Source of the DNA: Chiloscyllium plagiosum | Lineage: Eukaryota | Assembly (NCBI RefSeq): GCF_004010195.1 | Contig: NC_057721.1 | Location: 22,378,315 to 22,442,314 of the forward strand | Reading direction: 5' to 3' | Length of the DNA: 64,000 nt | Shown: positions 1 to 61,197 of the stretch, in pieces | How positions within the stretch are numbered: position 1 is the stretch's first letter | Layout: each line of letters starts with the position of its first letter | Notes under the pieces: generated by a model | What the model saw: only the letters and a program-made list of their open reading frames with translations | The model's database searches: none | What the model was told of the DNA's origin: nothing | Translations under genes and position numbers: made by a program

Positions 1-727
1 TCCCGGCACCTTCCCCTGCAACTGCAAGAAATGCAAAACTTGCGCCCACACCTCCCCTCTTACTTCCCTCCAAGGCCCCAAGGGACACTTCCATATCCGC
101 CACAAATTCGCCTGCACCTTCACACGCATCATCTATTGCATCCGCTGCACCCGATGTCGCCTCCACTATATTGGGGAGACAGGCCGCCTACTTGCGGAAC
201 GTTTCAGAGAACACCTCTGGGACACCCGGACCAACCAACCCAACCACCCCGTAGCCCAACACTTTAACTCCCCCTCCCACTCCACCAAGGACATGCAGGT
301 CCTTGGACTCCTCCATCGCCAGACCATGGCAACACGACGGTTGGAGGAAGAGCGCCTCATCTTCTGCCTGGGAGCCCTCCAACCACAAGGGATGAATTCG
401 GACTTTTCCAGTTTCCTCATTCCCCCTCCCCCCACCTTGTCTCAGTCAAATCCCTTGACCTCAGCACCGCCTTCCTAACCTGCAATCATCTTCTTGACCT
501 CTCCTCCCCCACCGCCCTCTTGCCTATCACCCTCACCTTGACCTCCCTCCACCTATCGCCTTTCCAAAACCCCTCCCCCAACTCCCTTCTCCCTACCTTT
601 TATCTTAGCCTGCTGGACACACTTTCCTCATTCCTGAAGAAGGGCTTATGCCCGAAACGTCGATTCTCCTGTTCCTTGGATGCTACCTGACCTGCTGTGC
701 TTTTCCAGCAACACATTTTCAGCTCTG
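1..727 (+). mobile_element. Penelope-like element 3' end: GIY-YIG endonuclease coding segment plus pseudo-LTR
   Basis: Frame from nt 2 is open to the stop at 476-478: PGTFPCNCKKCKTC...IIYCIRCTRCRLHYIGETGRLLAERFREH...PVAQHFNSPSHS...LQPQGMN, which is the PLE-type GIY-YIG domain. It is followed by the terminal repeat shared with many short copies in the window. Confidence 0.9.
634..661 (+). ncRNA. Minimal hammerhead ribozyme core in the PLE terminal repeat
   Basis: CTGAAGA-A-GGGC(TTAT)GCCC-GAAA-CG-TC fits CUGAnGA / stem II / GAAA / minimal palindromic stem III / UH. Stem I pairing is weak and activity is untested. Confidence 0.65.
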
Positions 728-3074
728 TTAGTCAGGAGTCTGCAAGTGGACTCTTTTAACATGGGAAGGTTGTTGTGCTAGAGCTACCATGTGGCTTTGG
801 ATGACCCGGAAATTCCTATTTTTACCAGCTGCCACAGGAAGCTCAGACTTATTTCCAAATTGAAAATCAACAAGTCAATAAAGTGAAATGATGACCACTC
901 CTTGGATGTGGATTTTTAAGTGCTCAGCAGCACATTTTATTCTCATCTTTTAATAAGTTCCCAAACAGTGATGTTAGCCTCAAGTATTAAAATGACTTTC
1001 CTTCTGGAAATTGTAATGGGGTCTGCAATCATCAGTCAAATGTACTTCCAGATTTTCCATGTTATGATTAGAATCAAGTTCAGTTGGAAAATCTAATGAG
1101 ATATTCGGCCCAATATTCTATTCCTGGTATGAATTCAGAATTCTAAGGATGCTGGAAATCTGAAATAGAAGCAAGAAGTATTGGGAGAACTTAACAGGTC
1201 AGCCAGCGGTTCGGGAGAGAAACAGAGTTAATGTTTCAGGTTGATGATCAATTGGAAGGTAACTATTCTTAATATGAAAGTCAATGTGGCTGTCTGCCAA
1301 TGTCAGTTCACCACTTAATCCTCCAGCTCTCTATCTTGGAAACCATGGACCAACATCTCAGAGCATGGTCTATGACTAGTGACTACATGTATTCCTCCTA
1401 TCCATAGATGTTAGCATCAGACACTCATCAGCCTTATCACTTAATAATGACACATCTCCAATCCACTTGCAAGATGCCTCTGCACATCAGTGCTCCATTT
1501 TGGAGCATGGGACATGTCGTGCACATGGACTGAAACTAATTCCAGATTCGGCCAGAGTACATCTCCGGGTTCCTCGCTTCCTCTCTCATGGCTCACTCAC
1601 TTTGTGCCTCCTTGAATGTTCACATTTTGCCCTACCTTTTTGTGCTTTGCTCCCACAGCCAGACCTTAAAGGCTCAAAGTATTGCTGTCTTACCTGACAG
1701 TCAGTCCAGGGGTTGGGTAAGGTCAGGTGACTGCTTTGGATGGTTAAGGTCAGTGAGTTTGTAACAGTGCAATCCAAGGATTCTGCTGTGGTCAGTCCTG
1801 CATGTCCAGTACAACTAGACCAGGAAGACACAGCATGTCAGTCAGGAGCTGCACAGAACTTGATCTAGAGTCTAGTCTGTCATCACTCAGGGTTCACCAT
1901 ACAAGATAGTCAGGGGTTGGCCTATTCAGTCTATTGTTCTTTAAGTCAAGGGGTGTTATCAGGGCCACTGTGGCGGTAGGGGATTTGAGAACTCAATTCT
2001 GGGGATTGGATGCAGCAATCTGGGAAGCAGAGGGGATAATAATTATGAAAGGGGAAGACAGTGGTATATTGGACAATATGGCTTATCACAGGAGAGGGCA
2101 AAATTGAAATTCAGTGCCATGTTGGCCTCATTGGGGTGCAATGCAGTACATTGTTTGACATGACTAAGCTGTAGCGCTGGAGATTTACAGTTTCATCTCT
2201 CTACTCTTTGAATTAGGCGTTGCTGAGTGGAAGCTCAGTACTGATGAACTCAACAGGGAGTTCCGGGAAAAGGGGACATGAGGTATGGAGGGTGGGTGGC
2301 TTTGATTACCAGTTGAGCCTGTGACTCACTGTGCCTCCATATTTGTATAAGTCATCAATTCTTACTGAAAATGGAAAATGGCTCTAACCACATCTGGATT
2401 TGGTGGGTGTTTTCTGTTGAGCCTGTGGGCTGTACTTTTGAGTGAAGTGAGGCTGTTTTGGGGAGCCGTTGCATTTATCAGGCACTGATCATAAATTTAG
2501 GATAGGCATCTCTGTGAAACAGAAATGGTCACAATTCGTAAAGAAGTACAAGGTCTCATGCAGTGCGCAAGGACACTGTTTTTACCTTGAAATGTTCACC
2601 AACATGCTCTTATATGCAATGTTGCCTTCTATTGGATGGTGTGGGGGCAGATAGGACATGCTATCAGTGGTCATACAGCACTTACAATCTCCTACTGTAT
2701 TTGTGGATCATGGCTTGGTGCTGTACTAATCACAATAAGGTTTCTATGTCAAAAGCCCACATAGGGACATTACACGGCCCTCCTTGTCAGAGTCCTTCAT
2801 CACTCATTGTATGGAGGAGGATATTAAACCATATAGGGCTGGATAACCTTTCAAGGGCAACAAGTTTCAGACCATAAATGCTGGTTCAGTTTGTAATGCC
2901 TACATGCATGAGTGAGTAAAAAATAGTATGGTTACTGAGAGATATGGCCAACTGTTCTGTAACCATGGATGATGCCTCTAATGCACAACCCTTGACTGAA
3001 TCTAAGTGGAGATACACTGCTGCCCATTCTTTCACCAGGGCCATTGTAGAACAGATGATAGGAGCAGATAGGTT

Positions 3075-3170
3075 CCTGATGAAGGCCTTTTGCCTGAAAT
3101 GACGATTTTCCCGCTCCTCGGATGCTGCCTGACCTGCTGTGCTTTTTCAGCACTACTCTAATCTTGCAAT
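3075..3170 (+). mobile_element. PLE terminal-repeat fragment with degenerate hammerhead core
   Basis: cctgatgaaggccttttgcctgaaatgacg...ggatgctgcctgacctgctgtgctttttcagc, homologous to 633-720. Confidence 0.7.
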
Positions 3171-5740
3171 ATCCACTTTCGCCCAGATGATAGGTCTGTT
3201 GAAAGTGAAGTGCTGATGCTTATTTTGGTTTGAGGGAGGCCTGCGGTACAGTCCGGATAGAGTGTGCTGCATAATTGTAGTGTGTTGTGCTTTGCTGGAG
3301 CAGTCAATGTTGGGATGTGACAGATTCTGAAGAGCTGGGTGAGTAGCAGCAATATTCCAAGGAGAAAGATTGAACAAGAGGAATATCACCTTCAGTGAAC
3401 AAGCGCAACAGGCCAGACAGGACTTTGTTGACATAGCAACAGCAGAAATCTTCAACATGTGTCATCCCGGACTCAGTGTTAACTGTTTCTTTCTCCATAG
3501 ATCCTTCCAAACCTCCAGAGTTGCTCCATAATTCTCCATTTTTAGAACCTAATTGGCAACTGGTTCCAGTAGTTGTGATTGATAACTGGGTGCATTGATA
3601 ACTTATGGACTATAAATTTGTTGTTACTCCAGAAATGAACGGGCTCTATTTGTTGCATGAGGTCTATGCCACTTCTGTTTGTTTGTTCCATACTTTAGCT
3701 ATTACTGCATAAAGGTGAATGTTCTGCATTGTTTGAAGACTTACCAATATGTGATAGTTCCTCAGTGAACAATGAGGAGGTGTGGGGTACACTGGGCATT
3801 AGGGAAAGGGTAGCATCATCTTAGACATAGTCCTAAGATGGGATGAAAGTAAGGATGGATACCTTGTGGAACTTGTGCTATGAGAAACATTTGTTTTTGG
3901 TTCCTCTCCAACTAAGTGCATGGTGAAGGGCAACTCCAGACCAGCATCACTTGATTGGATGCACAAGCCGAGCTTCAAAGATGGCGCTGACATTGGATCT
4001 TGGGAAGTGCTAGCAGTGTGGATAGTCTCTGTGATGCCTAGCTAACAAAGCAATTTTTGGAAAAATAGTGAGAAATCTCACTAGGCTTTAAGAAGAGAAT
4101 CCATCCATGAAACTTGCAACAATTGCCACTTAACTGATTTCTGATAAAATTTCGCCTGTTAGCTTGGTTTCTGTCGACAGTTGTTGCCTGACCTGCTGAG
4201 TTTTTCCAGCATTCTTTGTTCTTATTCAATTTCTGCGAACGTGAGGAATGCTTTGCTCCTGGGTGGGAGGGAAATGGGCATGTGGCAACAGATCTCCTTC
4301 TCCTTTTATTGAGTCTTGGTTTCATGCACCTTCCCATGAATGCAGAACAATAGAAGGAAGCAATAAAATAAAGTGAAAATGAGTGGAAGGAGTTTAATCC
4401 CTTCTACCTCCTCCTTTTCCTGTGATAACACAAGGTGGATCCACAATGAGGCTGTTGCGAGCACTTGCATTTAGCCTCCCTTGAGTCAAAAGTTCCAACA
4501 TAGGCAGATGGAAAGACTTAGGAAGCTTTGAAAAGGCAAATTAACTTTGTTTCCCACAGAGTGCCCTCAGTTTAAGGGCTGGAGGCCGTCTGGTTGCTGC
4601 TTTTAGATAGCAGCCAAAAGGATTGCGGCTAGCTGTAATTACCGCTCCTGGCTTTCCACTCAACATTCTGTGCAGTAGCCAAGTGCTGAAACCTTTCTCG
4701 GGGCATTTGCCACTGTGCTAATTACTTGATTCCTTCAGTTCAGCTGGTCACAAACAACATACTTTGGGTGAGCTGTACCTGATCAAATACTCTCCTACAT
4801 GAAGGACTGAAATATCAGAGTCATGTCTGTCAGTACTGATTGAAAGAGCTGAGTACAAAATATCAAATTCATCTGTTTTAATTGAAGTAATATAACTAAA
4901 TTGCAATTCTATGCATTTGAGCAAATGAATATTTTAATTTTGAACAAATTTCAAAATTGCATACTGCATAATTTTATTCCTGTTATTTGAACTGGCACAA
5001 TTGGGAGCTGCAAATAAATTGATTATTGTTGCAAAATAATGGAATTAAATTACTAATTGATTTTCTGGTAACAAAACAATTGTAGTTCAATGGGTTAGGT
5101 AACCAAGGAATGATCAATTAACACCCACTTAGAAAGGCATGTGTCAATTAGAGACAGCATGGCTTTGTTAAAGAGAGGTCAAGCTGAACAAATATGGTCA
5201 AGTGTGGATATGAGGGAAGTTCAGTTGATGTAGCTCATAGAAAAGCTTTTGTCAAGGTTCCACATGGGAGACTGATTGAGAAGATTAATGCACTTGGAAG
5301 TGAGGGAAATTTGACAAGATAGATCAGAAACTGGCTTAGTAATAGGACACAAAGACTAATGTTAGAAGGCTGTTTGACTGGAGGCTCGTGTCTGGTGGTG
5401 TACCACAAGGATCAGAACTGGGAAACTTACTGTTTGTTTGTTATATACATAAATGAGGTGGATGTAAACGTGGGAGAAATGTTTAGCAAATTTGCAAAGG
5501 ACACCAAGATTAGTAGAGTGGTTATTGGCAAAGAAGATCATTGTAGGTTACAGGAAGATCGAGACAGGTTGGTCAGATGGGCAGAGCAGTGGCAAATGGT
5601 ATTTAACGCTGATGAATGTGAGGTGTTGCAAGTTGGAAGAAGAAACAAGATGAGGGTGTACTTAATGAATGGTAGGACACTAGGTAGCTTAGAGGAATGG
5701 AGAGATCCTGCGGTAATTATTCACAGTTGGCAGAGCATGT

Positions 5741-5965
5741 AGATTAGATTAGATTACTTACAATGTGGAAACAGNNNNNNNNNNNNNNNNNNNNNNCCTG
5801 CACATCTTTGGACTGTGGGAGGAAACCAGAGCACCTGGAGGAAACCCATGCAGACACGGGGAGAACGTGCAAACGCCACACAGTCAGTCGCCTGAGGCGG
5901 GAATTGAACCCGGGTCTCTAGCGCTGTGAGGCAGCAGTGCTAACCACTGTGCCACCGTGCTGCCC
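5741..5965 (-). mobile_element. HE1-type V-SINE (contains assembly gap)
   Basis: Reverse complement of the tRNA-like head ggcacagtggttagcactgctgcctcacagcg, V-domain, and (ATCTA)n tail. Confidence 0.85.
5775..5796. other. Assembly gap (22 N)
   Basis: Run of N inside a SINE copy. Confidence 1.
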
Positions 5966-6006
5966 ACAATGTAAATAGGATAGTTAAGAAAGCATATGGG
6001 ATACTT

Positions 6007-17138: not shown

Positions 17139-17246
17139 TGTGACCTTCCACTCAGATCGCATTGGGGAATTTTGGTATGAACTAAACCTCACTGCAAAGA
17201 AGCCAACACCAATTTCCCTTCCAGAATTGCAGTGCGAGCTGGGAAA
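17139..17246 (+). CDS. CFAP47: CFAP47-like exon B (S-VTFHSDRIGEFWYELNLTAKKPTPISLPELQCELG-K)
   Basis: Acceptor tttgcag|T, donor GAAA|gtaagt; 108 nt, phase 2/2, joins exon A as AG+T=Ser. EFWY-L-L...P-P...PE-QC-LGK motif matches CFAP47 as remembered. Confidence 0.9.
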
Positions 17247-17349: not shown

Positions 17350-18220
17350 AAGACCATAAGAAACAGAAACATGAGTAGATGATTCAGCCCCTTCAGCTGG
17401 GTCTACCATTCAATAAGAACATGGCTGATCCAATATTCCTTATTCAATTTATTATTGTCACATGCACTGAAATGCTGTGAAAAGTATTGTTTTGCGCGCT
17501 GTCCAGACACTTTCCTGTATTTTCCCAGTAACTCTTGATTCCCCAATTGATCAAGAATCTATCTCAGCCTTAAATGTACTCAAGAACTCTACCCCCATGA
17601 CAAAGAGTTGCAAAGACACTCAGCTCTCTAAGAGAAGGACTTCGTCCTCATCTCAGTCATAAATTGGCACACCTTTATTCTGAGACTATGCCCTCTGGTC
17701 CAAAACTCTCCCACGAGGGGAACATCCTCTCGGCATTTACCCAGTCATACCCCTTAAGAATCCTGTATGTTTCAGTGAGATCACTTTTTTTTTTCTAAAC
17801 TCCACTGAGTAGAGACTCAGAGTCTAGATCAGAGTGGTGCTGGAAAAGCACAGCAGGTCAGGCAGCATCCGAAGAGCAGGAAAATCGACGTTTCGGGCAA
17901 AATAGAGATTCCTGATGAAGGACTTTTGCCCGAAACATCGATTTTCCTACTTCTCGGATGCTGCCTGACCTGCTGTACTTTTCCAGCACCACTCTAATCT
18001 AGACTCTGGTTTTCAGCATGTGCAGTCCTTGTTTTTAACCTGAGTAGAGACCCAATCTGTTTAGCCTTTGCTCTTTAGACAATCCCTTCATGCAGGGATC
18101 ATCTGAACCTTCTCTGACTTGCCTCCAATGAAATTATGTCCTTCCTTCCTTAATAGGACCAAGACTACTCTCAGTTGTCCAGATGTGTTCTCATCAGCAC
18201 TTTGTATAGTTGCAGTAAGA
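17350..18220 (-). mobile_element. CR1 3' fragment hosting a palindromic PLE insert
   Basis: Reverse-complement CR1 3' end (cataagaaacagaa..., ctgagactatgccctctggtcc). Confidence 0.7.
17817..18039. mobile_element. Palindromic PLE terminal-repeat insert with 12-bp TSD
   Basis: Inverted arms gtggtgctggaaaagcacagcaggtcaggcagcatcc.../...ggatgctgcctgacctgctgtacttttccagcaccac; TSD ctgagtagagac at 17805-17816 and 18040-18051; hammerhead-like core ctgatgaaggacttttgcccgaaacatc. Confidence 0.85.
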
Positions 18221-19267: not shown

Positions 19268-19544
19268 AGATTAGATTCTCTACAGTGTGGAAACAGACCC
19301 TTCGGCCCAACAAGTCCACAATGACCCTCCGAACAGCAACCCACCCAGACCCATTCCCCTACACCTAAAACTACGGGCAATTTAGCATGGCCAATTCACC
19401 TAACCTGCACATCTTTGGACTGTGGGAGGAAACCGGAGCACCCGGAGAGAATGTGCAAACTCCACACAGACAGTTGCCGGAGGCTGGAATTGAACCTGGA
19501 ACCCTGACACTGTGAGGCAGCAGTGTTAACCACTGTGCTGCCCC
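19268..19544 (-). mobile_element. HE1-type V-SINE nested in CR1
   Basis: Reverse complement of the 11082-11421 family with an internal deletion. Confidence 0.85.
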
Positions 19545-19570
19545 GGTAGGGTAGTAAAGGTAGTAAAGAC

Positions 19571-19758
19571 GAGAATATGGTGCTGGAAAAGCACAGCAGG
19601 TCAGGCAGCATCCGAAGAGCTGGAGAATCGACATTGCCGGCATAAATCCTTCATCAGGAAAAGCTCCTCGGATGCTGCCTGACCTGTTGTGCTTTTCCAG
19701 CTCCACACTTTCGACTCTGATCTCCAGCAGTCCTCTGCTCTGCAATCCTCATTTTCTC
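19571..19758. mobile_element. Palindromic PLE terminal-repeat insert with 14-bp TSD
   Basis: Inverted arms; TSD aaggtagtaaagac (19557-19570) / aaggtattaaagac (19759-19772), 1 mismatch. Confidence 0.8.
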
Positions 19759-21067: not shown

Positions 21068-21580
21068 CACTCAGACCCCTCCCCCTACCCTATCCCTATA
21101 ACCCTGCATTCTACATGGCTAATCCACAAAGCCTGCACATCCCTTGACACTATGCCAATTTTAGTATGACCAATCCACCTAACCGGCACATCTTTGGACT
21201 GTGGGAGGAAACCAGAGCACCCAGAGGAAACTCACACAGATATGGGGACAATGTGCAAACTCCACACAGACAGTCACCTGAGGCTGGAATTGAACCCAGG
21301 TCCTGATGCTGTGAGACAGTAGTGCTAACTACTGAGCAAAATTGAGGACTACAGATACTGGAGATCAGAGTCGAGAATGTGGTGCTGGAAAAGCACAGCC
21401 AGTCAGGCAGCATTCGAGGAGCAGAACAATTGATGATTTGAGCATTCTCTTCATCAGGAATGAGACCTCATTTTCCCCATGTCTGAGTGGGTTTCGCCAG
21501 GTGCTCTAGTTTTCTCCCACAGTCCAAAGCTGTGCAGTTTACGTGGATAGACCATGCTTAATTGCCCACAGTATCTAGGC
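21068..21580. mobile_element. Cluster: HE1 SINE (-), PLE terminal repeat (-, about 21340-21465), HE1 fragment (+)
   Basis: Direct similarity to other copies in the window. Confidence 0.75.
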
Positions 21581-21599
21581 AGCTGTTCCCTAAAAATGA

Positions 21600-23015
21600 G
21601 TGTGTCTTCTTCACAGAAGAGGAGAAAAGTAGACCTTGTTGTTCAGGAGGAAGCATGTGAAATATTGCATGGGATAAACATAGTGAGGTAACATATTAAA
21701 GGGGACTCAGAATTTAAAAGTAGGGATGTACGTCTGAGAATCTATAACACTCTGGTCAGACTGCATTTAGAGTATTGTGCGCAGTTTTGGGAAGGATGTC
21801 CTCCAATCTTGTAGCGGGTTTAGAGGAGGTTCACGAGAATGGTCCCAGAATTGAAAAGCTTAACATGTAAGGAACATTTGAGCACTCTGGGACTATGCTT
21901 GATGGAGTTTATAAGAATGAGGGAGAATCTAATTGAAACTTACAGAATGCTGAATGACCTGGATAGAGTGGATGTTGGGAAGATGTTTCCATTGGCAGAA
22001 GAGACTGGGATCTGGGGCACAGCCTTAGAGTAAAAGGAAAATCTTTTAGAAGGGAGGTAAGGAGGAACTACTTCAGCCAGAGAGTGGTGAATCTATGGGA
22101 TTCACTACCACAGAAGACTGTGGAGGCCAGGTCATTGAGTATATTTAAGACAGAGATAGGTTCTTGATTGTCAAGGGCATCAAGGGTTACAGGGAGAAAG
22201 CAAGATAATGGGGTTGAGAAACTTATCAGCCATGATTGAATGGCGGAGCAGACTTGCTGGGCTGAATGGCCTAATTTCTGCTTCTATGTCTTATGGGACA
22301 AGCATCTTTCAAAGTAGCTGAATCATTGGACACAGACAAAATGTGTCCCAGGCTGCCAAGACTGCAAAGCTAAGAGAGGGAGAAAAATCACAGAGGATTT
22401 GACCATCATTTTCCAAATCTCTTTGACTACAGACCTGATGTCAGAGGACTATGGTTGCAAATGTCATACTGTTGTTTAAAGGCAGAGGGTTGAAACTGAA
22501 TAAGCATAAGCTGGTCAGTTTCACCTTGGTGCTGAAAAATTATTGGAAAATGTACTGGAGGACAAAATTAGTCATTAAGTATGTAAGTTAGCTCGCTGAG
22601 CTGGAAGACTTGCTTTCAGACCACCTCAAGAAACCAAGACCTATAAATAGAGAGGTGGGACATACCACCAGTGCTTTACCGGAGACTCTCACTGATGATG
22701 TTACCTGGTATGATGACAAAACGTCTGAAAACAAATCTTTCAGCTCAGCAAGCTAACTTATCATTAACCTGAGCTACAAACCTTCTCAAAAATCGCTAAA
22801 ATTTGTCATTATTTAGAAAGGTACAGATTAATTAACAACACTCAACATGTATTTGTTAGAGGATGTTTGTGGCTAACTAATTTGATTGAATTTTTTTGAA
22901 TGGGCAACAAAAATGTCAATAGGAACATTTTGAGTGATTTAACGTCGTCAGCATGGATTTCAGCAAGCTTTTTAATGAAGACTCAGATGGCATTCTGGTC
23001 AGGAAAGTAATAGCT
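21600..23015 (+). mobile_element. Nested CR1 fragments
   Basis: LYNTLVRLHLEYCAQFW-like and MRENLIETYRMLNDLDRVDVGKMFPL segments; tail tctatgtcttatgg; an older RT fragment follows. Confidence 0.75.
22578..22797 (+). mobile_element. Second-family PLE terminal-repeat insert with partial inverted end and 14-bp TSD
   Basis: Inverted ends taagttagctcgctgagctggaag / ctttcagctcagcaagctaactta; core CTGATGA-tgttacctggtatgatgac-(a)AAA-cg-TC at 22692-22725; TSD aaaattagtcatta (22564-22577) / aaaatttgtcatta (22798-22811). Confidence 0.7.
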
Positions 23016-23025
23016 AAAACAATCA

Positions 23026-26810: not shown

Positions 26811-27365
26811 TGATAATTTAGCTTAGGATAAGGACAATTTGTTTTCCAACAGAGCTCCCAATCCTATCTTTGTAACAGTAAAGTTGCAATCTGAATAAAT
26901 GTATGTGGCTAACTTATTCTTCTATCCATGCATTGTATTAGCAGATTGTTTCTGCTACAATGCTTTATTTGATGTTCATGTTTTTATCACACCTTTTGTT
27001 AAAAATTAGGACATGATTACATTATTTAGTTTTCTAACAATCCTACATTTAGTCCTTCATTTAGAAAGCATTTGTAAAGATGTATAAATTTATATTACCT
27101 GTTTTCCCAGATTTTGCATCATGTGGAATAACTGCAGAAAATCACACATGCTTGTAGAAAGTTGCAGTCTACCGAATGGCTAGTAGACGAACTATGCCGG
27201 ATCTAATAAGTGCAGTCTGACAAGGGCAATGGCCCATATATCTGGCAGCTTTAAAAGTTGAAAATTAATTTTTAATTACAATTGTAAGATTTTCAGAGAG
27301 AGGACAGTTAAAATTGACACTGCACTGTGAAAGAAGGCTGAGCAATATTAAAAGTTTTAAAAAAA

Positions 27366-27460
27366 CAAAAACAGAAATTGCTGGAAAAGCTCAGCAGCAC
27401 CTTTGGAGATAAATCAGAGTTAATGCTTTGGGTCAAGTGACCCTTCCTCAGAACTGAAAA
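27366..27460 (-). mobile_element. Third-family PLE-like terminal repeat fragment
   Basis: Minus strand reads ctgaggaagggtcacttgacccaaagcattaac; homologous to 53670-53770. Confidence 0.6.
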
Positions 27461-29010: not shown

Positions 29011-29105
29011 CCCTTCCTGATGAAGGGCTTTTGCCCAAAACGTGGATTTTCCTGCTTCTCGGATGCTGCCTGACCTGCTGTGCTTTTCCAGCAACACACT
29101 CTCGA
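29011..29105 (+). mobile_element. PLE terminal-repeat fragment
   Basis: CTGATGA-a-gggc(tttt)gccc-aAAAcg followed by the conserved arm. Confidence 0.75.
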
Positions 29106-29189: not shown

Positions 29190-29636
29190 AAGGAGTGTTT
29201 ATGGGTATTGTTGCAAGTATTTGGAATATCTTGATTAAATTGGAATGATCTGTTGGGTGTTCAGATGGGTTAAGCTATTAGGTAGGTGGAAGTGGGTATT
29301 GCAGATGCTGGAGATTAGAGTCAAGATTAGAGTAGTGCTGGAAAAGCACAGCAGGTCAGGCAGCATCCTTGGAGCAGGAAAATCAATGTTTTGGGCAAAA
29401 GACCTGCTGTGCTTTTCCAGCACTACGCTAATCTTAAGTTATTAGGTATTCTGTTCTCTTTTGTTTGTTTATTTGGTAATACTGTAAATAAATTCTGTTT
29501 TGTTTAAAACAAAGTGGTTTGACCAACTGCATCCCTCCGAGAATATCTGTGTTACACCTGCTTAAAACAGCTAGCAAATTTAAGGTCTGGGCTACTTTCT
29601 TGAACTGCTTTGAGGGGTCTGGCCTGGTCCATAACA
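29190..29636 (+). mobile_element. Probable LTR 3' fragment interrupted by a palindromic PLE insert (29285-29433)
   Basis: AATAAA and a terminal ...ggtccataaca. The insert is flanked by a 15-bp TSD ttaagctattaggta (29270-29284) / ttaagttattaggta (29434-29448). Confidence 0.6.
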
Positions 29637-32235: not shown

Positions 32236-34245
32236 CTCTTCCTTTTCCCTCATCTGTAAAGTCTAAAAATTAAAAGTGAAGAGATTACTTTTCTTTATTG
32301 TCAGAACAAATACCTAAATGTGACTGGCTGTTTATACTGCTTGATAACAGTGCTGACTGTCTGGAGATTTCCTCAACTTGATTTCCAAATTCATAATGAT
32401 ATTAAGTAAAGGAATTGCATGCCAAGAGAAGTCACTAGATCTTGAGCAGTGAACTCGATTACTTTCCCACTGACCAAAAGCTCTAGCCACTGAGACCGAG
32501 GTCTGATTTTACTCCATTTAATCCAAAGATAAAGACCAGCAAAATTCAGAAAGGTTACGAAAGCATTATCTGTGGAAATGAACTGGCATTAATGAAATTG
32601 GACTGCATTAGCTTTCCACACCTTGTTACCTTGTAGTAAGGCTGCTGTGCTGAGTTCATCTATGAATATTCATATGTGGAGTTTCCTTGGGATTAAGACA
32701 CTGTAACTTTGTTGGAAGATTGGGAGAAACACTGGGTAAATGTCGGTGAGATTTTCACCACAGTTACAACAGCTCATTTAGAGCACCATAAGGTACACCT
32801 GATATTCATACATGACCTAACTGGCCTGTTTGATATCAGAAGATTATATTATCCTGGACCTTCCATGGAACAGCAAGCATCATTAGATTTGTGACTATGT
32901 TCGAACCTTAACATGTCCCAATGATACTCTGCATTTCCTGGTGGGTCTTCTGAGACCAGAATCCCCAGAACCACAAACCACAGCATCCATTCCAAAGCTG
33001 TAGATCAGTGGGAGGACTGGACATAGCCCTTATAGCACTGGGTCAGTTTAAAGGTCCAGTTTGAATGTTAGTGAATGGGTGAGTGAGTGAGTAATAAAAA
33101 AGGGTAAAGTTGACAGATGAGTGAGGTAAATGAGTGGGGTGCCAGGTAGTTCAGGTGGGTGAGTGGTCAGGGATGGTCAGGTCAAGTTGTGAGGGGTGAT
33201 CAGTTCACAAACTAGTCAAATTGGATCTGGGGATAGTCAGGTAGTTGGGTTAAGTTGGGTGGGTAGTTGGCTCAGGAGGGGTAGTCCAGTGGAGTCAGGT
33301 AGGAGTCAGGTAGTGGGAGTTAAGTCTAGTCAGCTGGAGATGTGGTAGATAAGTGGTCAGGGGTTAGCATGGTTGGGAGGGTCAGCTTGTTGAAGGGGAG
33401 CTGGAGTTAGATTATCTCTGGATATGGGTTACCTAGAAGTGTCAATAGGATGTCAGGGTCTCAGGAGATAGATGAGGTTTTAATTTGTCCAACATTTCCA
33501 GCATTGCTATCCAGGTAAGTACTGCAGAATTGTCTGAAATCCCGATTGTAGCTCAGGGTCAGATACTTTTACACAATGTCCCGGAGGGTAAATTAATCGC
33601 TTGTTAAAAGTTCAAATTTTGCAGGCAACTCCTGTGGAGATCAATGGGTTTTGTGTCCTATCTTGTCTCCAGTGATCCAGACACTGGGCCAACCTTTGAT
33701 CAGGAATGAAAGTGAAATACTAAAGTTATTTATGCAATCTCATCTGCAATTCTGAAATGTGGCCGTAGAGTCTGGCTTTTGATGACAATGAGTTAAATTT
33801 TCCCAATGTTAAGGCATTATCAGTAGAATACTGTTTACTAAGCTGTACAGACAACAAAGGTCCCAAACCAATCCTCAGTTCACATGTGAGAAAGGTGAAA
33901 ATAAACCACATTTTCTGCTTCTGTTTATTATTCTCATTAGATATGTGTACGTTTTAATATGTGATTTGGATTCTGTTGTGATGTCTCTGCAATTAAATAA
34001 GCAATGAGCATTTGCTGCAAAGGATTGTAATTGATTATTGGGCATTTTGATTGAGATAGCAAAGTGAATCAAGTATGAATGAAATTGCAACTCAACAGTA
34101 TCTTTAGGAGAGGAGATCACAATAAGTAGATAATAGCTTCGCTTGGGACAAAATGTCTTGCATTCTAATTAGTCTTATGTCTGATCCCCTTCCCCCACTA
34201 TGAAACTGTTTGGTGGGAACTTCACTTGAGTATTACTGAGACAGA

Positions 34246-34336
34246 GATGGAAATGTGTTGCTGGAAAAGCGCAGCAGGTCAGGCAGCATCTAGGGAACAG
34301 GAGAATCGACGTTTCGGGCATTAGCCCTTCTTCAGG
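34246..34336 (-). mobile_element. PLE terminal-repeat arm with intact hammerhead core (34308-34335)
   Basis: Minus strand CTGAAGA-a-gggc(taat)gccc-GAAA-cg-TC; abuts duplicated segment A. Confidence 0.8.
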
Positions 34337-34655
34337 ATTTAGAAGATCAAAGGAACTTTAATAGGATATTGATAAGATGCAGGAATGGGCTAAAAATGGC
34401 ACATGAAATTGAGTGAAAGTAGATATGAAGTCATATATTTTGGAAATATATAATAGTTATATTCTTAATAAGGTGAACTTTGTGCTGTGAAGGAACAAAG
34501 GAATTTTGGATACAGTTCAAATGTTAATGGGAAAACATCAAGTGGATTGGACATTTTGAATGATACTCAGTGTCTTTTTTATCACAAAAAGTATTAAAGA
34601 TACTAGTAATAATAAGTCAATATAAAATCTCAGTGAGACATCAGAGTCTATTGTG
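34337..34655 (+). repeat. Duplicated segment A, copy 2 (old CR1 RT sequence)
   Basis: 319 bp at offset 2510 from copy 1; one difference seen (ggacacag/ggatacag). Confidence 0.95.
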
Positions 34656-37055: not shown

Positions 37056-37167
37056 ACGGGTTTGGCAGATGATCCCTCTGGCTAATTCTACTGTTGAGAC
37101 TCTGAAATTGGAAGTAGTTAACAGTAACCCAGGAGTTTTCTCAGTAGAGATTGATCCTAGAAAAGTC
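37056..37167 (+). CDS. CFAP47: CFAP47-like exon C (K-RVWQMIPLANSTVETLKLEVVNSNPGVFSVEIDPRKV)
   Basis: Acceptor ttgtgcag|A, donor GTC|gtgagt; 112 nt, phase 2/0, AA+A=Lys joins exon B. Resembles CFAP47 'QIIPLVN.T.ETLKLQV.NSNP.NF'. Confidence 0.9.
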
Positions 37168-39185: not shown

Positions 39186-39290
39186 TTAGTTGTGAATCCT
39201 CAGTCTACGCTTGAAGTACCTTTTCAATTCTCTCCGTCAACACTGGGAAAAAACGATCATTGTGCAACTATTATCTTTAAGTGTTCTCAG
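39186..39290 (+). CDS. CFAP47: CFAP47-like exon D (LVVNPQSTLEVPFQFSPSTLGKNDHCATIIFKCSQ)
   Basis: Polypyrimidine tract then tttacag|TTA, donor CAG|gtatgt; 105 nt, phase 0/0. Resembles 'P.ST.E.P..F.PS.LG..DH.A.I.F.C.Q'. Confidence 0.9.
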
Positions 39291-42869: not shown

Positions 42870-43026
42870 TTCGAAGAGTGGACATTTCATTTGTCAGGAG
42901 TAGGCTTGCTTCCGCAGCAGATGGACCCTGTCAGTGTCAGTGCATGTGTCAACTCTCATGCATCAGTTATTGTGCCTTTTGAGAATCCAACTAATGAGTT
43001 CCTTCTGGTGGATGTGCTGATGACAG
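42870..43026 (+). CDS. CFAP47: CFAP47-like exon E (FEEWTFHLSGVGLLPQQMDPVSVSACVNSHASVIVPFENPTNEFLLVDVLMT-G)
   Basis: Acceptor caacag|TTC, donor CAG|gtgatg; 157 nt, phase 0/1. Resembles 'F.EW.F.LSGVGL.PQ.....IPF.NPT.E..L.D..LT'. Confidence 0.9.
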
Positions 43027-44254
43027 GTGATGACCTCAATTTAGAGTATTGTTTGTTTTATTGAATGTTCATTGGTGTTAAGTAATTATCAAATGGTTTT
43101 TAGCCATTAGTAGCTAGTAACTGTAGCTGAGCACATTTTTAAGATACATGAGTTTGCAAACCATGCTAGAGTTAAATATTAAATATTTCACACTCTTAAA
43201 TACTTCAATTTTTTTTTTCAAATAGATGAATAATTTTTGTACCAAATATTCTGGTCTTCAGATCATCAAGCAAAGGTGGAAATCGGATCCTTTGGAGGTC
43301 CTGATGCATGAACACGGTGGGGGGGGGTAAACCCAGGAAATGTGAACTTCCAGTAGACAATTCCCTTCTCCCCATGACCCTCTGTGAAAGTCTCTGAGTT
43401 ACAATTGAAGACTTTGGAAAGTTTAACATTACTTACCTGGATTGTTACTTTGGGACATAGTACTCGGAGGGTGCTGTGTATTCCTGATCTGGTTGTGGTC
43501 TCAAATCCCAGTTTCTTGTGTAACCCCACAACTCTTGACTCCCTTATCTGTCAAAGATCTTTCTAACTCAGCCTTGAATAAGTCAAATGACCCCAAGCTT
43601 GCACTGTCTCTGGTGAATTCCATAGAGTAATGACACTGAGAGGGAGAAAAAAAACTTACATCTTTGTTTTAAAAGATAGATATCCTTGACAAAACTTTCT
43701 ATTCCCCGCCATGCCAAGGAGAATGGCAGCTGTGGGAACTTAACCTGCTAGGAGGCAAAAAGATCACATTCTTGTTGAGAAAAACTTCAATTAAGTTCCA
43801 CCCCTACAGGTGACTGGTCATGTATGTTGCCTGCAGGCTGCAGGATGCCAATCTGTGTACATTTTCATCTAAGTAATACCATAAATTGCTTGAATTAAAT
43901 TCACGTTTCCAAATAACTTTAATCCCAATCAAGAAAGCCAACCACGTATAGGAGGCGGGTACCTGGTGAGCTGTACTCTTTCCTTCCTCTACCTTGGGGT
44001 ACAGTATATATGGCTTTAAACAATTATAGTTACTTGTGTCATGACTTATTCAAGTAAAGCTGACAGGTCTAAGCAGTTTGGGCGATCGCCGAGTGCAAAA
44101 GGTACAAAAGAAACAAGGGAGAGGGTACAGCTGATATCTGAACAGCACTGGTAGTGTGGTTGAGTGGTTGAAGGTGCTGGGTTTAAGCTTCAGTCTCTAT
44201 CAAGTTGTAGGCTCAAATTGCACTCGACTAAAATATCATCATACACTCAAGTCG

Positions 44255-51623: not shown

Positions 51624-52243
51624 TGTTGAAAATGTGTTGCTGGAAAAGCGCAGCAGGTCAGGCAGCATCCAGGGAACAGGAGAATCGACGTTTCGGGCAT
51701 AAGCCCTTCTTCAGGAATGAGAAAAGTTTGTCCAGCAGGCTAAGATAAAGGGTCGGGAGGAGGGAATTGGGGGAGGGGGGTCGGAAATGTGATAGGTGGA
51801 AAGAGGTCAAGGTGAGGGTGATAGGTCAGACTGGGGTGGGGGCGGAGAGGTCAGGAAGAATGAGGGTGATAGGTCAGACTGGGGTGGGGGCGGAGAGGTC
51901 AGGAAGAATGAGGGTGATAGGTCAGACTGGGGTGGGGGCGGAGAGGTCAGGAAGAATGAGGGTGATAGGTCAGACTGGGGTGGGGGCGGAGAGGTCACCC
52001 CAGTCTGACCTATCACCCTCACCTTGACCTCTTTCCACCTATCACATTTCCGACGCCCCTCCCACAAGTCCCTCCTCCCGACCTTTTATCTTAGCCTGCT
52101 GGACAAACTTTCCTCATTCCTGAAGAAGGGCTTATGCCCGAAACATCGATTCTCCTGTTCCCTGGATGCTGCCTGACCTGCTGCGCTTTTCCAGCAACAC
52201 ATTTTCAGCTCTGATCTCCAGCATCTGCAGACCTCACTTTCTC
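51624..52243. mobile_element. Large palindromic PLE terminal-repeat insert with internal 48-bp tandem array and 11-bp TSD
   Basis: Inverted arms of about 210 bp; hammerhead cores at 51687-51714 (-) and 52120-52147 (+); TSD ctatctgtgag at 51613-51623 and 52244-52254. Confidence 0.9.
51813..51997. repeat. 48-bp tandem repeat, about 3.9 copies
   Basis: Unit tgagggtgataggtcagactggggtgggggcggagaggtcaggaagaa starts at 51813, 51861, 51909 and 51957. Confidence 0.95.
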
Positions 52244-53669: not shown

Positions 53670-53770
53670 AGTTCTGAGGAAGGGTCACTGGACCTGAAAC
53701 ATTAACTTTGATTTCTCTTCACAGAGGCTGCTAGACCTGCTGAGCTTTTCTAGCAACTTCTGTTTTTATT
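53670..53770 (+). mobile_element. Third-family PLE-like terminal repeat with hammerhead-like core
   Basis: CTGAGGA-a-gggtc(actg)gacct-GAAA-ca-TT at 53674-53703, followed by gctgctagacctgctgagcttttctagcaacttctgttttt. Confidence 0.65.
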
Positions 53771-55263: not shown

Positions 55264-55608
55264 GGGCAATACGGTGACACGGTGGCTCAGTGGTTAGCAC
55301 TGCTGCCTCAAAGCGCCAGGGACTCAGGTTTGATTTCCTCCTTGGGCAACTGTCTGCGTCGAGTTTGCACATTCTCTCCATGTCTGCCTGGGTTTCCTCT
55401 GGGTGATCTGGTTTAATCCCACAATCTAAAGATGTGCAGGTCGGGTGAATTGGCCACACAAAATTGTCCATAGTGTTAGGTACATTAGTCAGGGGTAAAT
55501 ATAGGGTAGGGGAATGGGTCTGGGTGGGTTACTCTTCGAAGGGTCGGTGTGGACTTGTTGGGCCGAAGGGCCTGTTTCCATACTGTAGGGAATCTAATCT
55601 AATCTAAT
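55264..55608 (+). mobile_element. HE1-type V-SINE
   Basis: Head, V-domain and (aatct)n tail. Confidence 0.85.
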
Positions 55609-55765
55609 TCCTGGTTTGCAGCAACCAAAGTTGTGTGCATCTAGGGTTTACAACTGGCATTAATGGTAGAAATGCCACAATGTGCAGGCAGTGGCAAAAA
55701 CTTCTGACTTTCTTGCCATGTAAAATCCACATGCTGGGCCCTGAAGAGTCTGGATGCATTAGTAA

Positions 55766-57410
55766 TTAAGTGAAGAGCAGAAGATTTCTAGAGATAGTTG
55801 CTGCAAGCCATGGTTGACCAGACACCATGAATCTTACTCGACAAAATGCTTTAACTGAAATGGTAAAGTTACACTCCTTATAGCCAGCTAGATAATTTCC
55901 TAACAGAAATTCAACATCTTTAATGAATAACGTAATCACAGTCCACATAACTGCAATACTGGAAATGTAACCACATTTCAAATTAACTTTATCGAGTTAA
56001 ACATCCTCCATTAATACTCATTAATATCTTTTTATAATATGAACCTTCCAGAGGGAGATTGCTGCCATCAGCCATCATCAGCAATTTCTCTAAGAATAAT
56101 AATTTTGTTTCCATGCTTTAGCAGATAAGAATAATGATATTTCATCTCTGAGCTTGTAACTCCTCCATTTTCAGTGCTTTGATTGTTGATCTATGCTGCT
56201 AATTTCCTCACTCTAACTATAATTCTGATGATTATCAAATTTCTGTGTGAGTTTGTAAACAAAGGCTTACTGCTATTCACATGTTTTTGCGACCATTCGT
56301 AATCATTAGCCATTACAATAGCTGACTTTGTTTTGGAAACTTTATTAACTGTATCTCAAAAGGGATACCAATTTTAAATTCTTCCATGAGTATTATCATT
56401 CTAAGATTTTCAAAATCTCATTCAATCTCAATAGACCCGTATTTCCTATCAAATATCATTTCCTTTTTTCTCATAAATTCCACAAAAGTGTGATTCTACT
56501 GCTTCCTTTGATTTCTAGACTTTTGCCGCAAGTTTGCAGAACTAACTCAGAGGCAATAAAAATAATCATTTTCTCTGTATGATAATCACTAAATGGTTTG
56601 TCTGATGGAGATGAGGACTCTTCTAATGCCTTTCCACCAAATGCGTTTTGCAGTAAAACCATTCAACTTTCCAGAAGTCATTATATCTTTGAAGCAATTT
56701 CCTAAAATCATGCATTATACGTTTCAACTCCTTCCTCACAAAATGAGGTACAAAGTGTCAATTCAAAACAAAAAGTTACATCTGAGTTTACATTAAGTTT
56801 TCCTGCCAACCCCTCCATTCATGTAATTTAAGATTTTTTTGTCAATTTCAAATATTTTTCTCTAAATTTTCTTGTTCTAGTTTCTCATTGATCTTTTTCG
56901 CTTTCTCTTTCAAACTTGGGGTTTTCCTGGTCTTTTGCCCTTTGGAATTCAAGAACAAGTTTTCACATTTGCTTTACTATCTCAAATTCATTTTTTTCTA
57001 CCCATCTCTCTTTCTCGTGAATTTAGTTGTTGCCTTCATCTCTTTCAGCTCAAGTTACTTCATTTATAATTGGAATTTAAAAAACTCAACCTGAGTGCTA
57101 TCAGACTCAGCATTTTCATCTCCAGGCTCAGGTGTTCTGAAAAAGATTCTTTCACCCCAAAATGTTAACTCTGTTTTTCTCTCTTTACAGATGATACGTT
57201 TCTCCAGCACTTTGTTTTAATTTCAGATTTCCAGTATCCATAGTATTCACCATTTTCTTCTCAAGATTCAGAGGTTAAGCTGATACATCAGTAACCTTCA
57301 CTTATTTAAGTTTCTACTTCTAACTCTGTTTCACCACTTTCAAACTAAACTTTGTCAACTATTGCAAGCAAATTGCCTTTCTTCAGAGATGGTTAACCAA
57401 CAGAAGTAGC
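55766..57410 (-). mobile_element. Decayed Gypsy-type LTR retrotransposon gag and protease-adjacent remnant
   Basis: Minus-strand pseudo-translation gives an E/K/R coiled-coil stretch, then FVPHFVRKELKRIMHDFRKIASKI**LLES*MVLLQNAFGGKALEE...SDYHTEKMIIFIASELV, FENLRMIILMEEFKIGIP, AIVMANDYE, and further on KDVEFLLGNYLAG. This is collinear with fish Gypsy gag motifs as remembered (LVPPF.E..F.KIA..W.LLLQ...GKA.E...DY..VK.AIL.AYELVPE..LILLEEFK..LLGNDLAG). Confidence 0.7.
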
Positions 57411-57727: not shown

Positions 57728-57946
57728 AGCTGAAAAATGTGTTGCTGGAAAAGCGCAGCAGGTCAGGCAGCATCCAAGGAGCAGGAGAATCGACGTTTCG
57801 GGCATAAGCCCTTCTTCATTCCTGAAGAAGGACTTATGCCCGAAACGTCGATTCTCCGGCTCCTTGGATGCTGCCTGACCTGCTGCGCTTTTCCAGCAAT
57901 ACACTTTTCAGCTCTGATCTCCAGCATCTACAGTCATCACTTTCTC
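57728..57946. mobile_element. Near-perfect palindromic PLE terminal-repeat insert with 16-bp TSD
   Basis: Arms of about 90 bp; core CTGAAGA...GAAACGTC at 57822-57849; TSD catatacatgttacag (57712-57727) / catatatatgttacag (57947-57962). Confidence 0.9.
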
Positions 57947-58478: not shown

Positions 58479-58685
58479 TTGAAACTTTATTGCTGGAACA
58501 GCACAGCAGGTCAGGCAGCATCCAGGGAACAGGAGATTTGACGTTTCGGGCACAGGCCCTTCTTCAGGGCCTGTGCCCGAAACGTCGAATCTCCTGTTCC
58601 CTGGATGCTGCCTGACCTGCTGTGCTGTTCCAGCAATAAAGTTTCAACTTTGATCTCCAGCATCTGCAGACCTCACTTTCTCCTC
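58479..58685. mobile_element. Near-perfect palindromic PLE terminal-repeat insert with 14-bp TSD
   Basis: TSD actgttttggaatg at 58465-58478 and 58686-58699; minus-strand core CTGAAGA-a-gggc(ctgt)gccc-GAAA-cg-TC at 58540-58567. Confidence 0.9.
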
Positions 58686-60811
58686 ACTGTTTTGGAATGA
58701 CAAAATCCTGCTTGCAAAGTGATAATACTGCAAAGAGAATTTCATTTTTTTCATTTATTGGTTGTCAAATTATGACTTAGAATGCATGTCGTATTGAGGA
58801 ATGTTGGAGCAACATAATTATTTTTAACAGAGTTGTCAGGCTATAATAAAACCTATTTTGGGTTGTCAAATATTGGAGTACCTACATTTTTTGCAAGTTT
58901 TAGATATAAATTACAATGTCATAACTGTGAAATACCTGACAACACATTCTTGTATGGATGATTCGTTGGGGGAATGGAAGATTGAGCCTATTGCTGAATT
59001 GATGGAATCTCACATTGTGATGGGCATAAGAGAATTGACAGCTGGCCCATGTTTAAAAAAATTATCAAATTATCTATCATCTGTCAGCTTAGGAGAACCA
59101 TTAGAAATGAGAAAGTTTAGAATATTGAGTCTTTATAATTTACAATTGTGATGCACACTAGATGCTAACTAATATGTGAAAAACATCCACAAACTCTGAT
59201 CTTCATAATACCTTTTGGTGAAGCCTAACAGTGATAACATTTATCATGATCAAAATTATATAACCATGTGGGTTGTTACAGTGCATTCATGTGATGTTTA
59301 AGAAGTCTGTTTAACACAACACATTTAAAATCTATCCCTAAAATAGATACTTTAGGAAAGGTAAAAATTGCCACCGTTCAAAGCTTTTGAGTTACTGTCA
59401 CAGCATAGAAATGGTCAAAGATAGATTTTGATGAACCATAGAAAAGAACATTGAAGTTCCAGAATTAAGATTCAAATCCTTGTTGCTAAAGAACTGGAAA
59501 AGTTGTTTGAGGTGGGTTAGGGAGGCTGTGGATAAATTGGAAAACAAACCATAAGATCTTGAATTTGAAGAATAGGGAATAGAGAACCAGTGAAAACTAA
59601 TGAGGAAAGAAATAATATTTGAGTGGGATTTATTGCAAGTAAGATATGACTAGTAAATGTTTTTGGATAAATTGATACTGAGAGCACAGACAAGTTGGCT
59701 TGTTATGCAAGGTGCTGTCGAAATTGGCTTTCCTGTGTTTGAGGATATCTATTCAAGGTGGCAAACCGTTACTATGGGTCTCAATGTGACCAAATAGACC
59801 ATTTGGTAATCCACAATCTTTGAGCACAAAGGACAGGGATCTCTCGCAAGGTAGTGTGACCCTGACTGTAGGATTTGCTTCTTTTTCTTTCCTTCTCTGA
59901 AGTCAGATGGTTTCATTATTAAATCTTTGCAATAGCAGGCATGGTACAGCTTTATGGATCAGCTTTCTGAAGAATTTATAACAAGCCGCTCCCAATCATT
60001 CAAGTCTGTGCTGTCATGCTTCAAGTACATCTTCAGAATGTCTTTTAAGGTGTTTTCTTTTTCCTTCCCTAAAATGTTGGCTATTTGAGAGTTGAGAGAA
60101 AGGTCCTAGCAATAGAGAGTTTTCAGCCATCTCGGCACATTGATCAGTACATCAAACTTGATATTGCAGGAGTTTTGCATGAATGTTTTTGGACTTGTTT
60201 TCAGGAAGGAAACTAGCCGATCTAACAGAGAGAAAAAAAACATCATTGTCATATTGTAACATGGACTTCACATGGAAAGACATACTTGTGCTGATAAAAT
60301 CCCAACCATTATGGAAGTCATTAAAAGGCAATCAATTCATGGATGATAAAGGAAATATTACCAATCTTAAATCTGGAAATTATGCTGTAGTATATTAACA
60401 AATGAACATGAATATATTTGTTGAATATTAATTTAATGGTTTGATCCCTTTGTTAAGAGAGTAGAAAACTGATTTAATATAAATAGTTTGTATGTTGGTA
60501 TATCAATATTGTAACAGATTATTTCTGGGTGTTTTTTCTGTTGGAAAAGAAAAATGGTAAAAAAATTTCAAATCCAGCTGGAACAGATGAAGAATCAGAA
60601 ATCAAAAGAAAGCTTGAAACTATTCTTGACAATCATGCAGTAATGAACTACTTGAGAGTCCTGATGCAAAGCAAGTGTTGGAAAGAAGTGATTTGATTAA
60701 ATTTTGCACTGCATGTCATATTTCAGGATGGGAAAAGTAGCTTGGCCCAGACATTTAGTTTAGTTTGATGTTTAATTAACCCATGCCTGTGAAGCACAAA
60801 TGCATAACTAA

Positions 60812-61197
60812 ATTGCTAAAGCCATTGTTGTGGTTCTGTTTGCCGAGCTGGAATTTGTGTTGCAGACGTTTCGTCCCATGTCTAGGTGACATCCTCAGTG
60901 CTTGGGAGCCTCCTGTGAAGCGTTTCTGTGTTGTTTCTTCTGGCATTTATAGTGGTTTGTCTCTGCCACTTCCGGTTGTCAGTTCCAGCTGTCCGCTGCA
61001 GTGGTCAGTATATTGGGTCCAGGTCGATGTGTTTGTTGATAGACTCTGTGGGTGAGTGCCATGCCTCTAGGAATTCCCTGGCTGTTCTTTGTTTGGCATG
61101 TCCTATAATAGTAGTGTTGTCCCAGTCGAACTCATGTTGCCTGTCATCTGCGTGTGTGGCTACTAAGGATAACTGGTCCTTAGTAGCTACACACGCA
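60812..61197 (-). mobile_element. Penelope-like element 3' fragment (different clade) with hammerhead core at 60865-60898
   Basis: Minus strand encodes SLVATHADDRQHEFDWDNTTIIGHAKQRTAREFLEAWHSPTESINKHIDLDPIY (GIY-YIG C-terminus). Downstream: gca-CTGAGGA-t-gtc(acctagacatgg)gac-GAAA-cg-TC-tgc. Confidence 0.85.

Follow-up and report, generated by a model that had tools for sequence, protein, structure and literature searches.

Minimal hammerhead motifs in the end modules of Penelope-related insertions within a 64-kb region of the Chiloscyllium plagiosum genome

The 64,000 nucleotides of the shark Chiloscyllium plagiosum analysed in this work (contig NC_057721.1, positions 22,378,315 to 22,442,314; hereafter the window, numbered from its first letter) host a dense set of minimal hammerhead ribozyme motifs. 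The motifs reside in the end modules of four families related to Penelope-like elements (PLEs), left in the genome as short, mostly damaged and likely inert insertions. These were probably formed by the element's reverse transcriptase (RT), which would have begun synthesis some 100-130 nt within the element RNA and continued until the template ended at its 5' terminus, and the probability of the whole reading is put at about 0.75. It is favored by the occurrence of the motif above chance, by open reading frame (ORF) ends found upstream of the cores at 634 and 60898, by head-to-head units flanked by target duplications, and by the sharp 5' edge of the copies. The find is an ordinary one: hammerheads at PLE ends are of an already described kind, and the window adds shark families to a described class and little else; it does not reveal mobile catalytic RNAs of a new family.

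Hammerhead motifs in the window

The pattern CTGANGA-N9-26-GAAACGTH has six exact matches (634, 34335, 51714, 57822, 58567 and 60898) against a chance mean of 0.01, and none of 100 shuffles attains six. An earlier sequence-only reading of the same DNA had listed 11 sites, and all were found, by a loose scan and direct reading, at or beside the positions it gave; its minus-strand coordinates proved to be low ends, the CUGA boxes beginning at 51714, 34335, 58567, 27451 and 60898. It had also suggested a search with a minimal descriptor. When boxes, a stem II of at least 3 bp, a paired 15.2-16.2 and UH are demanded, five of the 11 sites pass (634 and, on the minus strand, 34335, 51714, 58567 and 60898), against a control mean of 0.02 in 100 simulated sequences. 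Stem I measures 0-4 bp in these strict-pass sites, and since 58567 has none (0 bp), complete cores amount to 4 of the 11. A profile built from 11 window copies retrieved 27 pieces of the family A/B type, versus none in the reversed window. Sites missing from the earlier list are 3076, 17912 and 57137 on the plus strand and 19657, 21457 and 57819 on the minus strand, and the listed sites are part of a denser set of copies. Shuffles, simulated controls and the reversed-window profile rule out a chance origin of the motif. The Rfam search, also suggested earlier, was unproductive: none of the 26 matches obtained in the window at E values up to 10 is a hammerhead family, and the miRNA matches at 51909-52067 were put down to the palindrome located there.

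The motifs had been described as minimal type I hammerheads with a palindromic ACGU stem III, and they are: boxes, UH triplet and the 15.2-16.2 palindrome are present. The layout, with one unpaired base between A9 and 10.1, a G10.1-C11.1 pair, a palindromic 15.2-16.2 and no loop III, is that reported for the minimal type I hammerheads of PLEs (PMC4209133); pair 10.1-11.1 is G-C in 12 of the 14 family A rows having letters there. Monomer folds of 634, 51714, 34335 and 60898 do not yield an active hammerhead, as expected for the minimal type, and the 634 fold is devoid of stems I and III. Minimal PLE motifs are reported to show no cleavage as monomers and low cleavage as dimers (PMC4209133).

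Four families and their link to Penelope-like elements

At least three Penelope-related families had been claimed, and four, called A, B, C and D, could be distinguished. The parts recognised at the ORF-bearing ends of families A and C are the following:

2..478, plus strand: 3' end of a family A PLE ORF, with a CX4CxxC Cys linker and a GIY-YIG endonuclease; Neptune-type by its linker
628..634, plus strand: initiator-like TCATTCC; A630 is the commonest 5' edge of family A copies
634..661, plus strand: complete family A core, stem II of 4 bp and stem I of 2 bp; predicted cut after 661
662..727, plus strand: downstream module conserved in families A and B; this copy is without the extra tail
60830..61214, minus strand: 3' end of family C (probably Poseidon-type), a GIY-YIG tail followed by a complete core (60865-60898)

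The family A core begins 156 nt after the ORF stop at 478. The ORF end matches the Pfam GIY-YIG domain with E=0.0012, which falls below the curated cutoff, and has 14 longer relatives, including shark proteins 60-85% identical and full-length proteins 46-50% identical to it. Five relatives were scanned for domains: two contain RT and GIY-YIG, one RT only, one GIY-YIG only, one neither. The window holds endonuclease ends only; RT and GIY-YIG are found together in full-length relatives at 46-50% identity. A CX2-5CxxC linker ahead of the endonuclease is the Neptune criterion (Craig 2021, PMC8557442), and by its Cys linker CX4CxxC family A is, at the sequence level, Neptune-type. A strong polypyrimidine tract ending in TAG, similar to the 3' splice site of a PLE intron, is located at 583-607, upstream of the family A hammerhead.

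The endonuclease end of family C is 82-89% identical to six bamboo-shark proteins, one of which has an RT, and the core at 60898 lies about 110 nt downstream of the ORF end. A short fold-back is found at the 5' junction of the GIY-YIG tail. By the linker criterion (PMC8557442), which for Poseidon is a canonical endonuclease lacking the Cys linker, family C would be Poseidon-type. An 87%-identical, RT-bearing relative has, by eye, no Cys linker; the window copy is cut inside the endonuclease. The endonuclease frame runs on through the CUGAGGA box and ends in loop II (60882-60898, minus strand). In the window copy it is interrupted by one stop at 61005-61007. A bamboo-shark relative (P0017) has its end at these very residues of loop II; the 5' half of the hammerhead would thus be coding. 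In the Poseidon element of Anolis carolinensis (PAc; Frangieh 2024, PMC11167929), by contrast, it is the ORF start which coincides with stem II.

Family B shares the downstream module with family A, and family D resembles family C in layout; for B and D the tie to PLEs consists in these resemblances only.

Architecture of the insertions

Target duplications were sought at 15 regions. Eight have duplications of 11-16 nt with at most one mismatch, seven of 10 nt or less, lengths which may contain 1-3 nt of microhomology. Seven of the eight duplicated insertions are head-to-head units, each with its own junction, and arms are identical at 90/94, 82/83, 76/82 and 206/212 positions in the four units compared. 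Typically one arm carries an extra tail of 30-35 nt, and copies fall into two 3' end classes, with and without this tail. Most other copies are end pieces of 90-130 bp. The insertions are the following:

3063..3183, plus strand: family A stub with tail; decayed core 3076, 11-bp target duplication
17820..18039, both strands: head-to-head family A insert; 15-nt duplication with one mismatch; plus arm with decayed core 17912, minus arm beginning inside loop II
19571..19758, both strands: head-to-head family A insert; 14-nt duplication; minus arm with decayed core 19657, plus arm beginning past the core
21339..21464, minus strand: old family A stub with tail; core 21457 broken
22578..22797, plus strand: family D insert; 38-bp inverted arm, 14-nt duplication
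22692-22725, plus strand: family D core; GAAA changed to AAAA, stem I of 3 bp
27361..27455, minus strand: family B stub; core 27422-27451 broken
29014..29102, plus strand: family A stub; core 29017-29044 with G12 and N17 altered
29285..29433, both strands: head-to-head family A insert; 15-nt duplication, complete core absent
34238..34339, minus strand: family A stub; complete core 34308-34335
51624..52243, both strands: head-to-head family A insert; exact 11-bp duplication, tail on the plus arm only; cores 51687-51714 (minus, complete) and 52120-52147 (plus, ACAU); at the centre, 3.9 copies of a 48-bp unit of element sequence
53670..53770, plus strand: family B stub; core 53674-53703 with 5-bp stem II, ACAU, and the GUU-type triplet changed to AUU
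57134..57212, plus strand: decayed family B stub
57728..57946, both strands: fold-back family A insert; arms 90/94 identical, 4-nt loop, 16-nt duplication; plus core 57822-57849 with one stem II mismatch, minus arm without C3
58479..58685, both strands: fold-back family A insert; arms 82/83 identical, exact 14-nt duplication; minus core 58540-58567, without stem I

This architecture matches that described in passages on endonuclease-positive (EN+) PLE units (Arkhipova 2013, PMC3846280; Craig 2021, PMC8557442), which feature 5' truncation, an adjacent inverted and 5'-truncated copy, a junction palindrome, an optional tail of 30-40 bp on one end, and a target duplication. Unlike the EN+ units described there, most units of the window are reduced to an end module of 100-130 bp with a sharp, common 5' edge, of which no description was found in the passages of PMC3846280 and PMC8557442. 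The tail matches the two internal RT starts which set the tail in PAc (PMC11167929), and by analogy with the latter the module at 662..727 is likely an RT recognition or start region.

The 48-bp unit at the centre of the 51624 insert (51813-51997) is a piece of the element's own 3' region, repeated with 100% identity, which suggests repeated template slippage in one integration. A 325-bp stretch abutting the 5' end of the 34335 copy (34331-34655, 99% identity) duplicates part of 31821-32235, and a 97-bp stretch (36469-36565, 100% identity) copies an adjacent part of the same region, with a 7-nt word overlapping the source of the former. Both may come from recent templated duplication, perhaps linked to insertion, or be an assembly artefact.

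Public reads and the common 5' edge

Positions 1-900 were compared, at 85% likeness, with four public sequencing runs of the same species. Matches were provided by about 101,000 and 86,000 contigs in two DNA runs and by 3,046 reads in one RNA run; the second RNA run had no matching reads, and is thus no test. The productive RNA run is a single-cell poly(A) library with no reads on the unique flank 751-900, hence silent on the expression of this locus, and contig depth is not a measure of copy number. A search of sequencing runs listed no RNA run as containing 30001-40000.

The ratio of depth over 631-720 to depth over the ORF is 35 for the RNA run, and the two contig sets give ratios of 6 and 9. 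Among the loose ends listed (18 of 1621), the top 5' ends of both DNA runs fall at 629-631, where a flank agreement of 0.31-0.34 points to unrelated flanks; the RNA run has 630 and 639. The 5' edge of copies is thus common to them and sharply defined, and precedes the CUGA box by 3-5 nt; family B copies likewise start at or near the A located four bases before C3. Since RNA reads lie in both orientations and only 30 have a likeness of at least 99%, they are host transcripts passing through many copies. Read ends do not pile up anywhere in 1-900, and depth is continuous over the predicted cut 661/662. The idea that cleavage defines the copy ends was discarded, as 662 is absent among the loose ends listed and copies retain the core. 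No AG precedes 630, and a splice acceptor like that of Drosophila Penelope is accordingly absent from the edge. A downstream promoter element overlapping ACGU, a notion derived from PMC2377424, was dropped, since the spacing differs between A and B and the match is partial. Junctions 661 to 630, 664 to 631 and 671 to 630, all within 614-671, recur at a summed depth well above that of the unique flank, inversions and tandems being undistinguished in this count.

A630 is the A of TCATTCC, which we take to fit the initiator consensus and, putatively, to function as such. An extra G ends all five joints at 630/631 (four distinct, among the 12 of 97 listed), and in both DNA runs G is the last letter of the loose-end consensus before 630. 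An untemplated G has been ascribed to cap copying in L1-driven insertions (PMC3287187).

Formation of the end modules

Transcription would start at 630, at a capped Pol II start set by the initiator. The element RNA would serve as template in uncleaved form, since the 5' ends of copies lie ahead of the core and do not coincide with the cut. RT would start internally, about 100 or 130 nt downstream, and run off the RNA 5' end just before the hammerhead, and the junction could be closed during integration by joining, by fold-back or by a second primed arm. The ribozyme might act, if at all, only in the RNA of the parent element, as a dimer or with the help of proteins. PAc offers a parallel: it is uncleaved RNA that serves as template, no RNA-seq reads end at the cut site, hammerhead mutants still insert, and cleavage needed the protein (PMC11167929). 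Were the common 5' edge a capped start, stubs would record the transcription start and both RT starts of vertebrate Neptune-type PLEs. Hammerhead cleavage would then not shape the template, a conclusion that bears on the purpose of PLE hammerheads.

Several observations weigh against this scenario. Of the sharp-edged family A arms in the window, only 2 of 5 have the extra G; T is the last letter of the consensus before 630 in the RNA run and of that before 631 in both DNA runs; the count of extra Gs assumes that the last printed letter abuts the junction. The initiator and extra-G checks are weak. The RNA run is a single-cell poly(A) library, its reads, in both orientations, reflect host transcripts, and the depth step may come in part from subfamilies with upstream regions less than 85% alike. 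In Drosophila Penelope the start precedes helix I by an intron and a further 46 nt (PMC4209133, PMC2377424), so that a start at helix I is not general. An ORF link for families B or D was not found in this window. Lastly, a DNA hairpin predicted over the 5' box might arrest the cDNA at this very point or make it fold back there.

The hairpin leads to the foremost alternative, unlikely but deserving attention, in which the same PLE stubs owe their common 5' edge to structure and not to the transcript start. Either the hammerhead fold or a footprint protected by protein would stop RT or a 5' exonuclease, and the CUGA-box hairpin would let the cDNA fold back. In families A and B the edge does coincide with the point where stem I begins on its 5' side; a cDNA extending about 10 nt upstream of C3 is predicted to form a hairpin of 7 bp and a 4-nt loop, and the inserts 57728 and 58479 turn over at 4- and 5-nt loops inside the hairpin box. 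Moreover, the Anolis PLE protein requires a region beginning at the hammerhead (PMC11167929). However, a structural stop leaves the initiator-like motif and the extra junction G unexplained, stem I of family A is only 2 bp long, with a pairing probability near 0 in monomer folds, and the sequence of families C and D continues far beyond the core in the upstream direction.

A bolder proposal, which we regard as doubtful, has the module of 100-130 bp, with its start site, its hammerhead and its signal for the RT start, as a complete cis unit. Each PLE transcript would mostly spawn leader mini-copies, because the RT start signal sits just behind the capped 5' end, and some copies would be transcribed anew and spread in trans as short interspersed nuclear elements (SINEs) do. 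Such modules would form, on equally slender odds, a SINE-like class headed by a hammerhead and driven by PLEs, separate from tandem retrozymes.

It is improbable that modules of 100-130 bp make up a non-autonomous family of the retrozyme or SINE kind, one which propagates itself through renewed transcription and mobilisation in trans by PLE proteins. In its favor, ORF ends are fewer than short modules, and the latter have a common 5' edge; Drosophila Penelope has an internal promoter (PMC2377424), and in-trans mobilisation by pseudo-long terminal repeats (pLTRs) has been reported (PMC3846280). A few junctions recur at a summed depth of 60-135 versus 6-26 on the unique flank in most bins, figures which are not copy numbers. 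Against such a family, the hammerhead occurs in a head-to-tail tandem in none of six Tandem Repeats Finder rows of the window, each head-to-head insert has its own junction, copies starting at 630 miss the first two bases of the initiator-like motif, and no reads end at the cut site.

Core decay and stem II

Beyond the five strict-pass sites, the remaining six of the 11 are damaged. The statement that catalytic boxes are kept holds only in part: the GAAA box is broken at 29017, 22692 and 27451, and ACGU is changed to ACAU at 52120 and 53674. Stem II has one mismatch at 57822. Decay partly at CpG, as proposed earlier, was confirmed, many defects occurring at CpG; as an example, 5 of 22 cells differ at the CG of 15.2/16.2.

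Covariation was tested on 15 aligned family A arms, and core changes were counted in the 11 arms with a full core, the other four being excluded. Stem II of family A is one helix, GGGC/GCCC, and 84.5% of cells pair over the 15 arms. A single double change occurs in the 15 rows, and is matched in 26 of 500 shuffles; the parts of the core which vary are loop II (8/44 cells) and N7 (5/11). The notion of a covarying stem II is thus not sustained within family A. From one of the families A, B, C and D to another, stems I and II keep their pairing despite differing sequences and lengths, stem II being longer in B, C and D than in A, but an alignment in terms of substitutions is not feasible. Differences of this kind fit a conserved fold, and with 1-3 copies each of B, C and D are not measurable covariation.

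Excess conservation of the core boxes was not detected either. Changes outside CpG are fewer in the core (3/110) than in the tail (43/539), but not significantly so (p=0.064), and the comparison with the conserved tail box (16/374) gives p=0.59; that core changes are not clearly fewer than tail changes is in line with inert insertions. The third base of stem II (equivalent to 644), a non-CpG G, is altered in 4 of the 11 full-core arms (17912, 19657, 57822 and 3076), in three of them to A, and all three reside in head-to-head inserts.

Relation to known hammerhead systems

Minimal hammerheads have been reported at PLE ends, mostly solo and in thousands per genome, in fishes, coelacanth, frog and reptiles (Cervera and De la Pena 2014, PMC4209133), and among fish PLEs in Neptune, Poseidon and Xena. 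As in those genomes, several families coexist in the window, mostly as solo motifs tied to truncated PLEs. Unlike the minimal hammerheads of Schistosoma, which have a stem II of 7-8 bp and a stem I of 4-5 bp, family A has a stem II of 4 bp and a stem I of 2 bp. Shark terms are absent from one supplement file of PMC4209133. No paper on these families was found in the literature on PLE hammerheads in sharks; Repbase, Dfam or some supplements may list them.

The window population had been called retrozyme-like and non-autonomous, a label which does not stand. Non-LTR retrozymes have as defining traits a head-to-tail arrangement of hammerhead-bearing units and expression as circular RNA, next to linear RNA of unit length (PMC7229834; Li 2026, 10.64898/2026.07.22.740005), and have been reported in one chondrichthyan genome (Li 2026). 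Likeness is found in the type I hammerhead placed in short non-coding repeats related to PLE pLTRs (Cervera 2020, PMC7229834; Li 2026). Unlike in retrozymes, however, hammerheads of the window are never in tandem. All six rows given by Tandem Repeats Finder are free of hammerheads; same-strand sites are spaced from 685 bp to 23 kb, the closest belonging to separate insertions, and head-to-tail arrays of at least two hammerhead units are absent from this window, so that the label fails here. Cervera 2020 (PMC7229834) separates minimal PLE motifs from the canonical ones of retrozymes, and no canonical type I hammerhead, with a 6-bp helix I and loop-loop contact, was found, stem I of the strict-pass sites being too short. 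Two cores placed behind PLE ORF remnants and the PLE-like insertion architecture complete the difference.

Hammerheads within the CFAP47 gene

The sequence-only reading had placed several copies in the sense orientation of the CFAP47 pre-mRNA. Exons were chosen by a splice-site script and by resemblance, and then matched to PDB 9ijj. CFAP47, a cilia gene, does lie on the plus strand, three exons matching collinear stretches of 9ijj_4A (2622-2778):

17139..17246, plus strand: CFAP47 exon, 9ijj_4A 2622-2651, E=2.3e-5
37056..37167, plus strand: probable CFAP47 exon; by phase and length it would fill 2652-2689
39186..39290, plus strand: CFAP47 exon, 9ijj_4A 2690-2724, E=0.0031
42870..43045, plus strand: CFAP47 exon, 9ijj_4A 2725-2778, E=6.2e-8

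Sites before 17139 and after 43045 are presumably intronic. Sense copies exist, and that at 634 is complete, but a preference for this orientation does not: 16 copies are on the plus and 13 on the minus strand (p=0.71), and four of the five strict-pass sites are antisense to CFAP47, 634 being the sole sense one. An effect of the hammerheads on CFAP47 RNA is unlikely. The idea that some sense copies cleave the CFAP47 pre-mRNA in a host role can draw on the complete core at 634 and on conserved intronic hammerheads known in amniotes (PMC7229834), but hardly deserves credit, given the single strict-pass sense site with no intact same-strand partner, the lack of strand bias, the long hairpin (-181 kcal/mol) in which 57822 is locked by pairing with the inverted arm of its insert, a distance of at least 666 bp from any site to the nearest identified exon (16.5 kb for 634), and the failure of minimal PLE hammerheads to cleave in vitro as monomers (PMC4209133).

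Other repeats

A second dispersed repeat of about 320 bp occurs at 5797-5967, 11084-11402, 19226-19553, 21140-21353, 28133-28477, 36042-36366 and 55267-55642; it is probably a tRNA-derived shark SINE, putatively HE1-like. The ORFs at 5323-5742, 18259-18858, 19760-20154 and 52824-53297 resemble, by eye, RT fragments of long interspersed nuclear elements (LINEs) of the CR1/L2 type, and the head-to-head insert 19571 lies just before one of these LINE-like ORFs. Positions 5775-5796 are a run of 22 N. Inverted repeats of 102 bp, set 1.5 kb apart at 23025-23126 and 24654-24755, are possibly the remnant of a DNA transposon.

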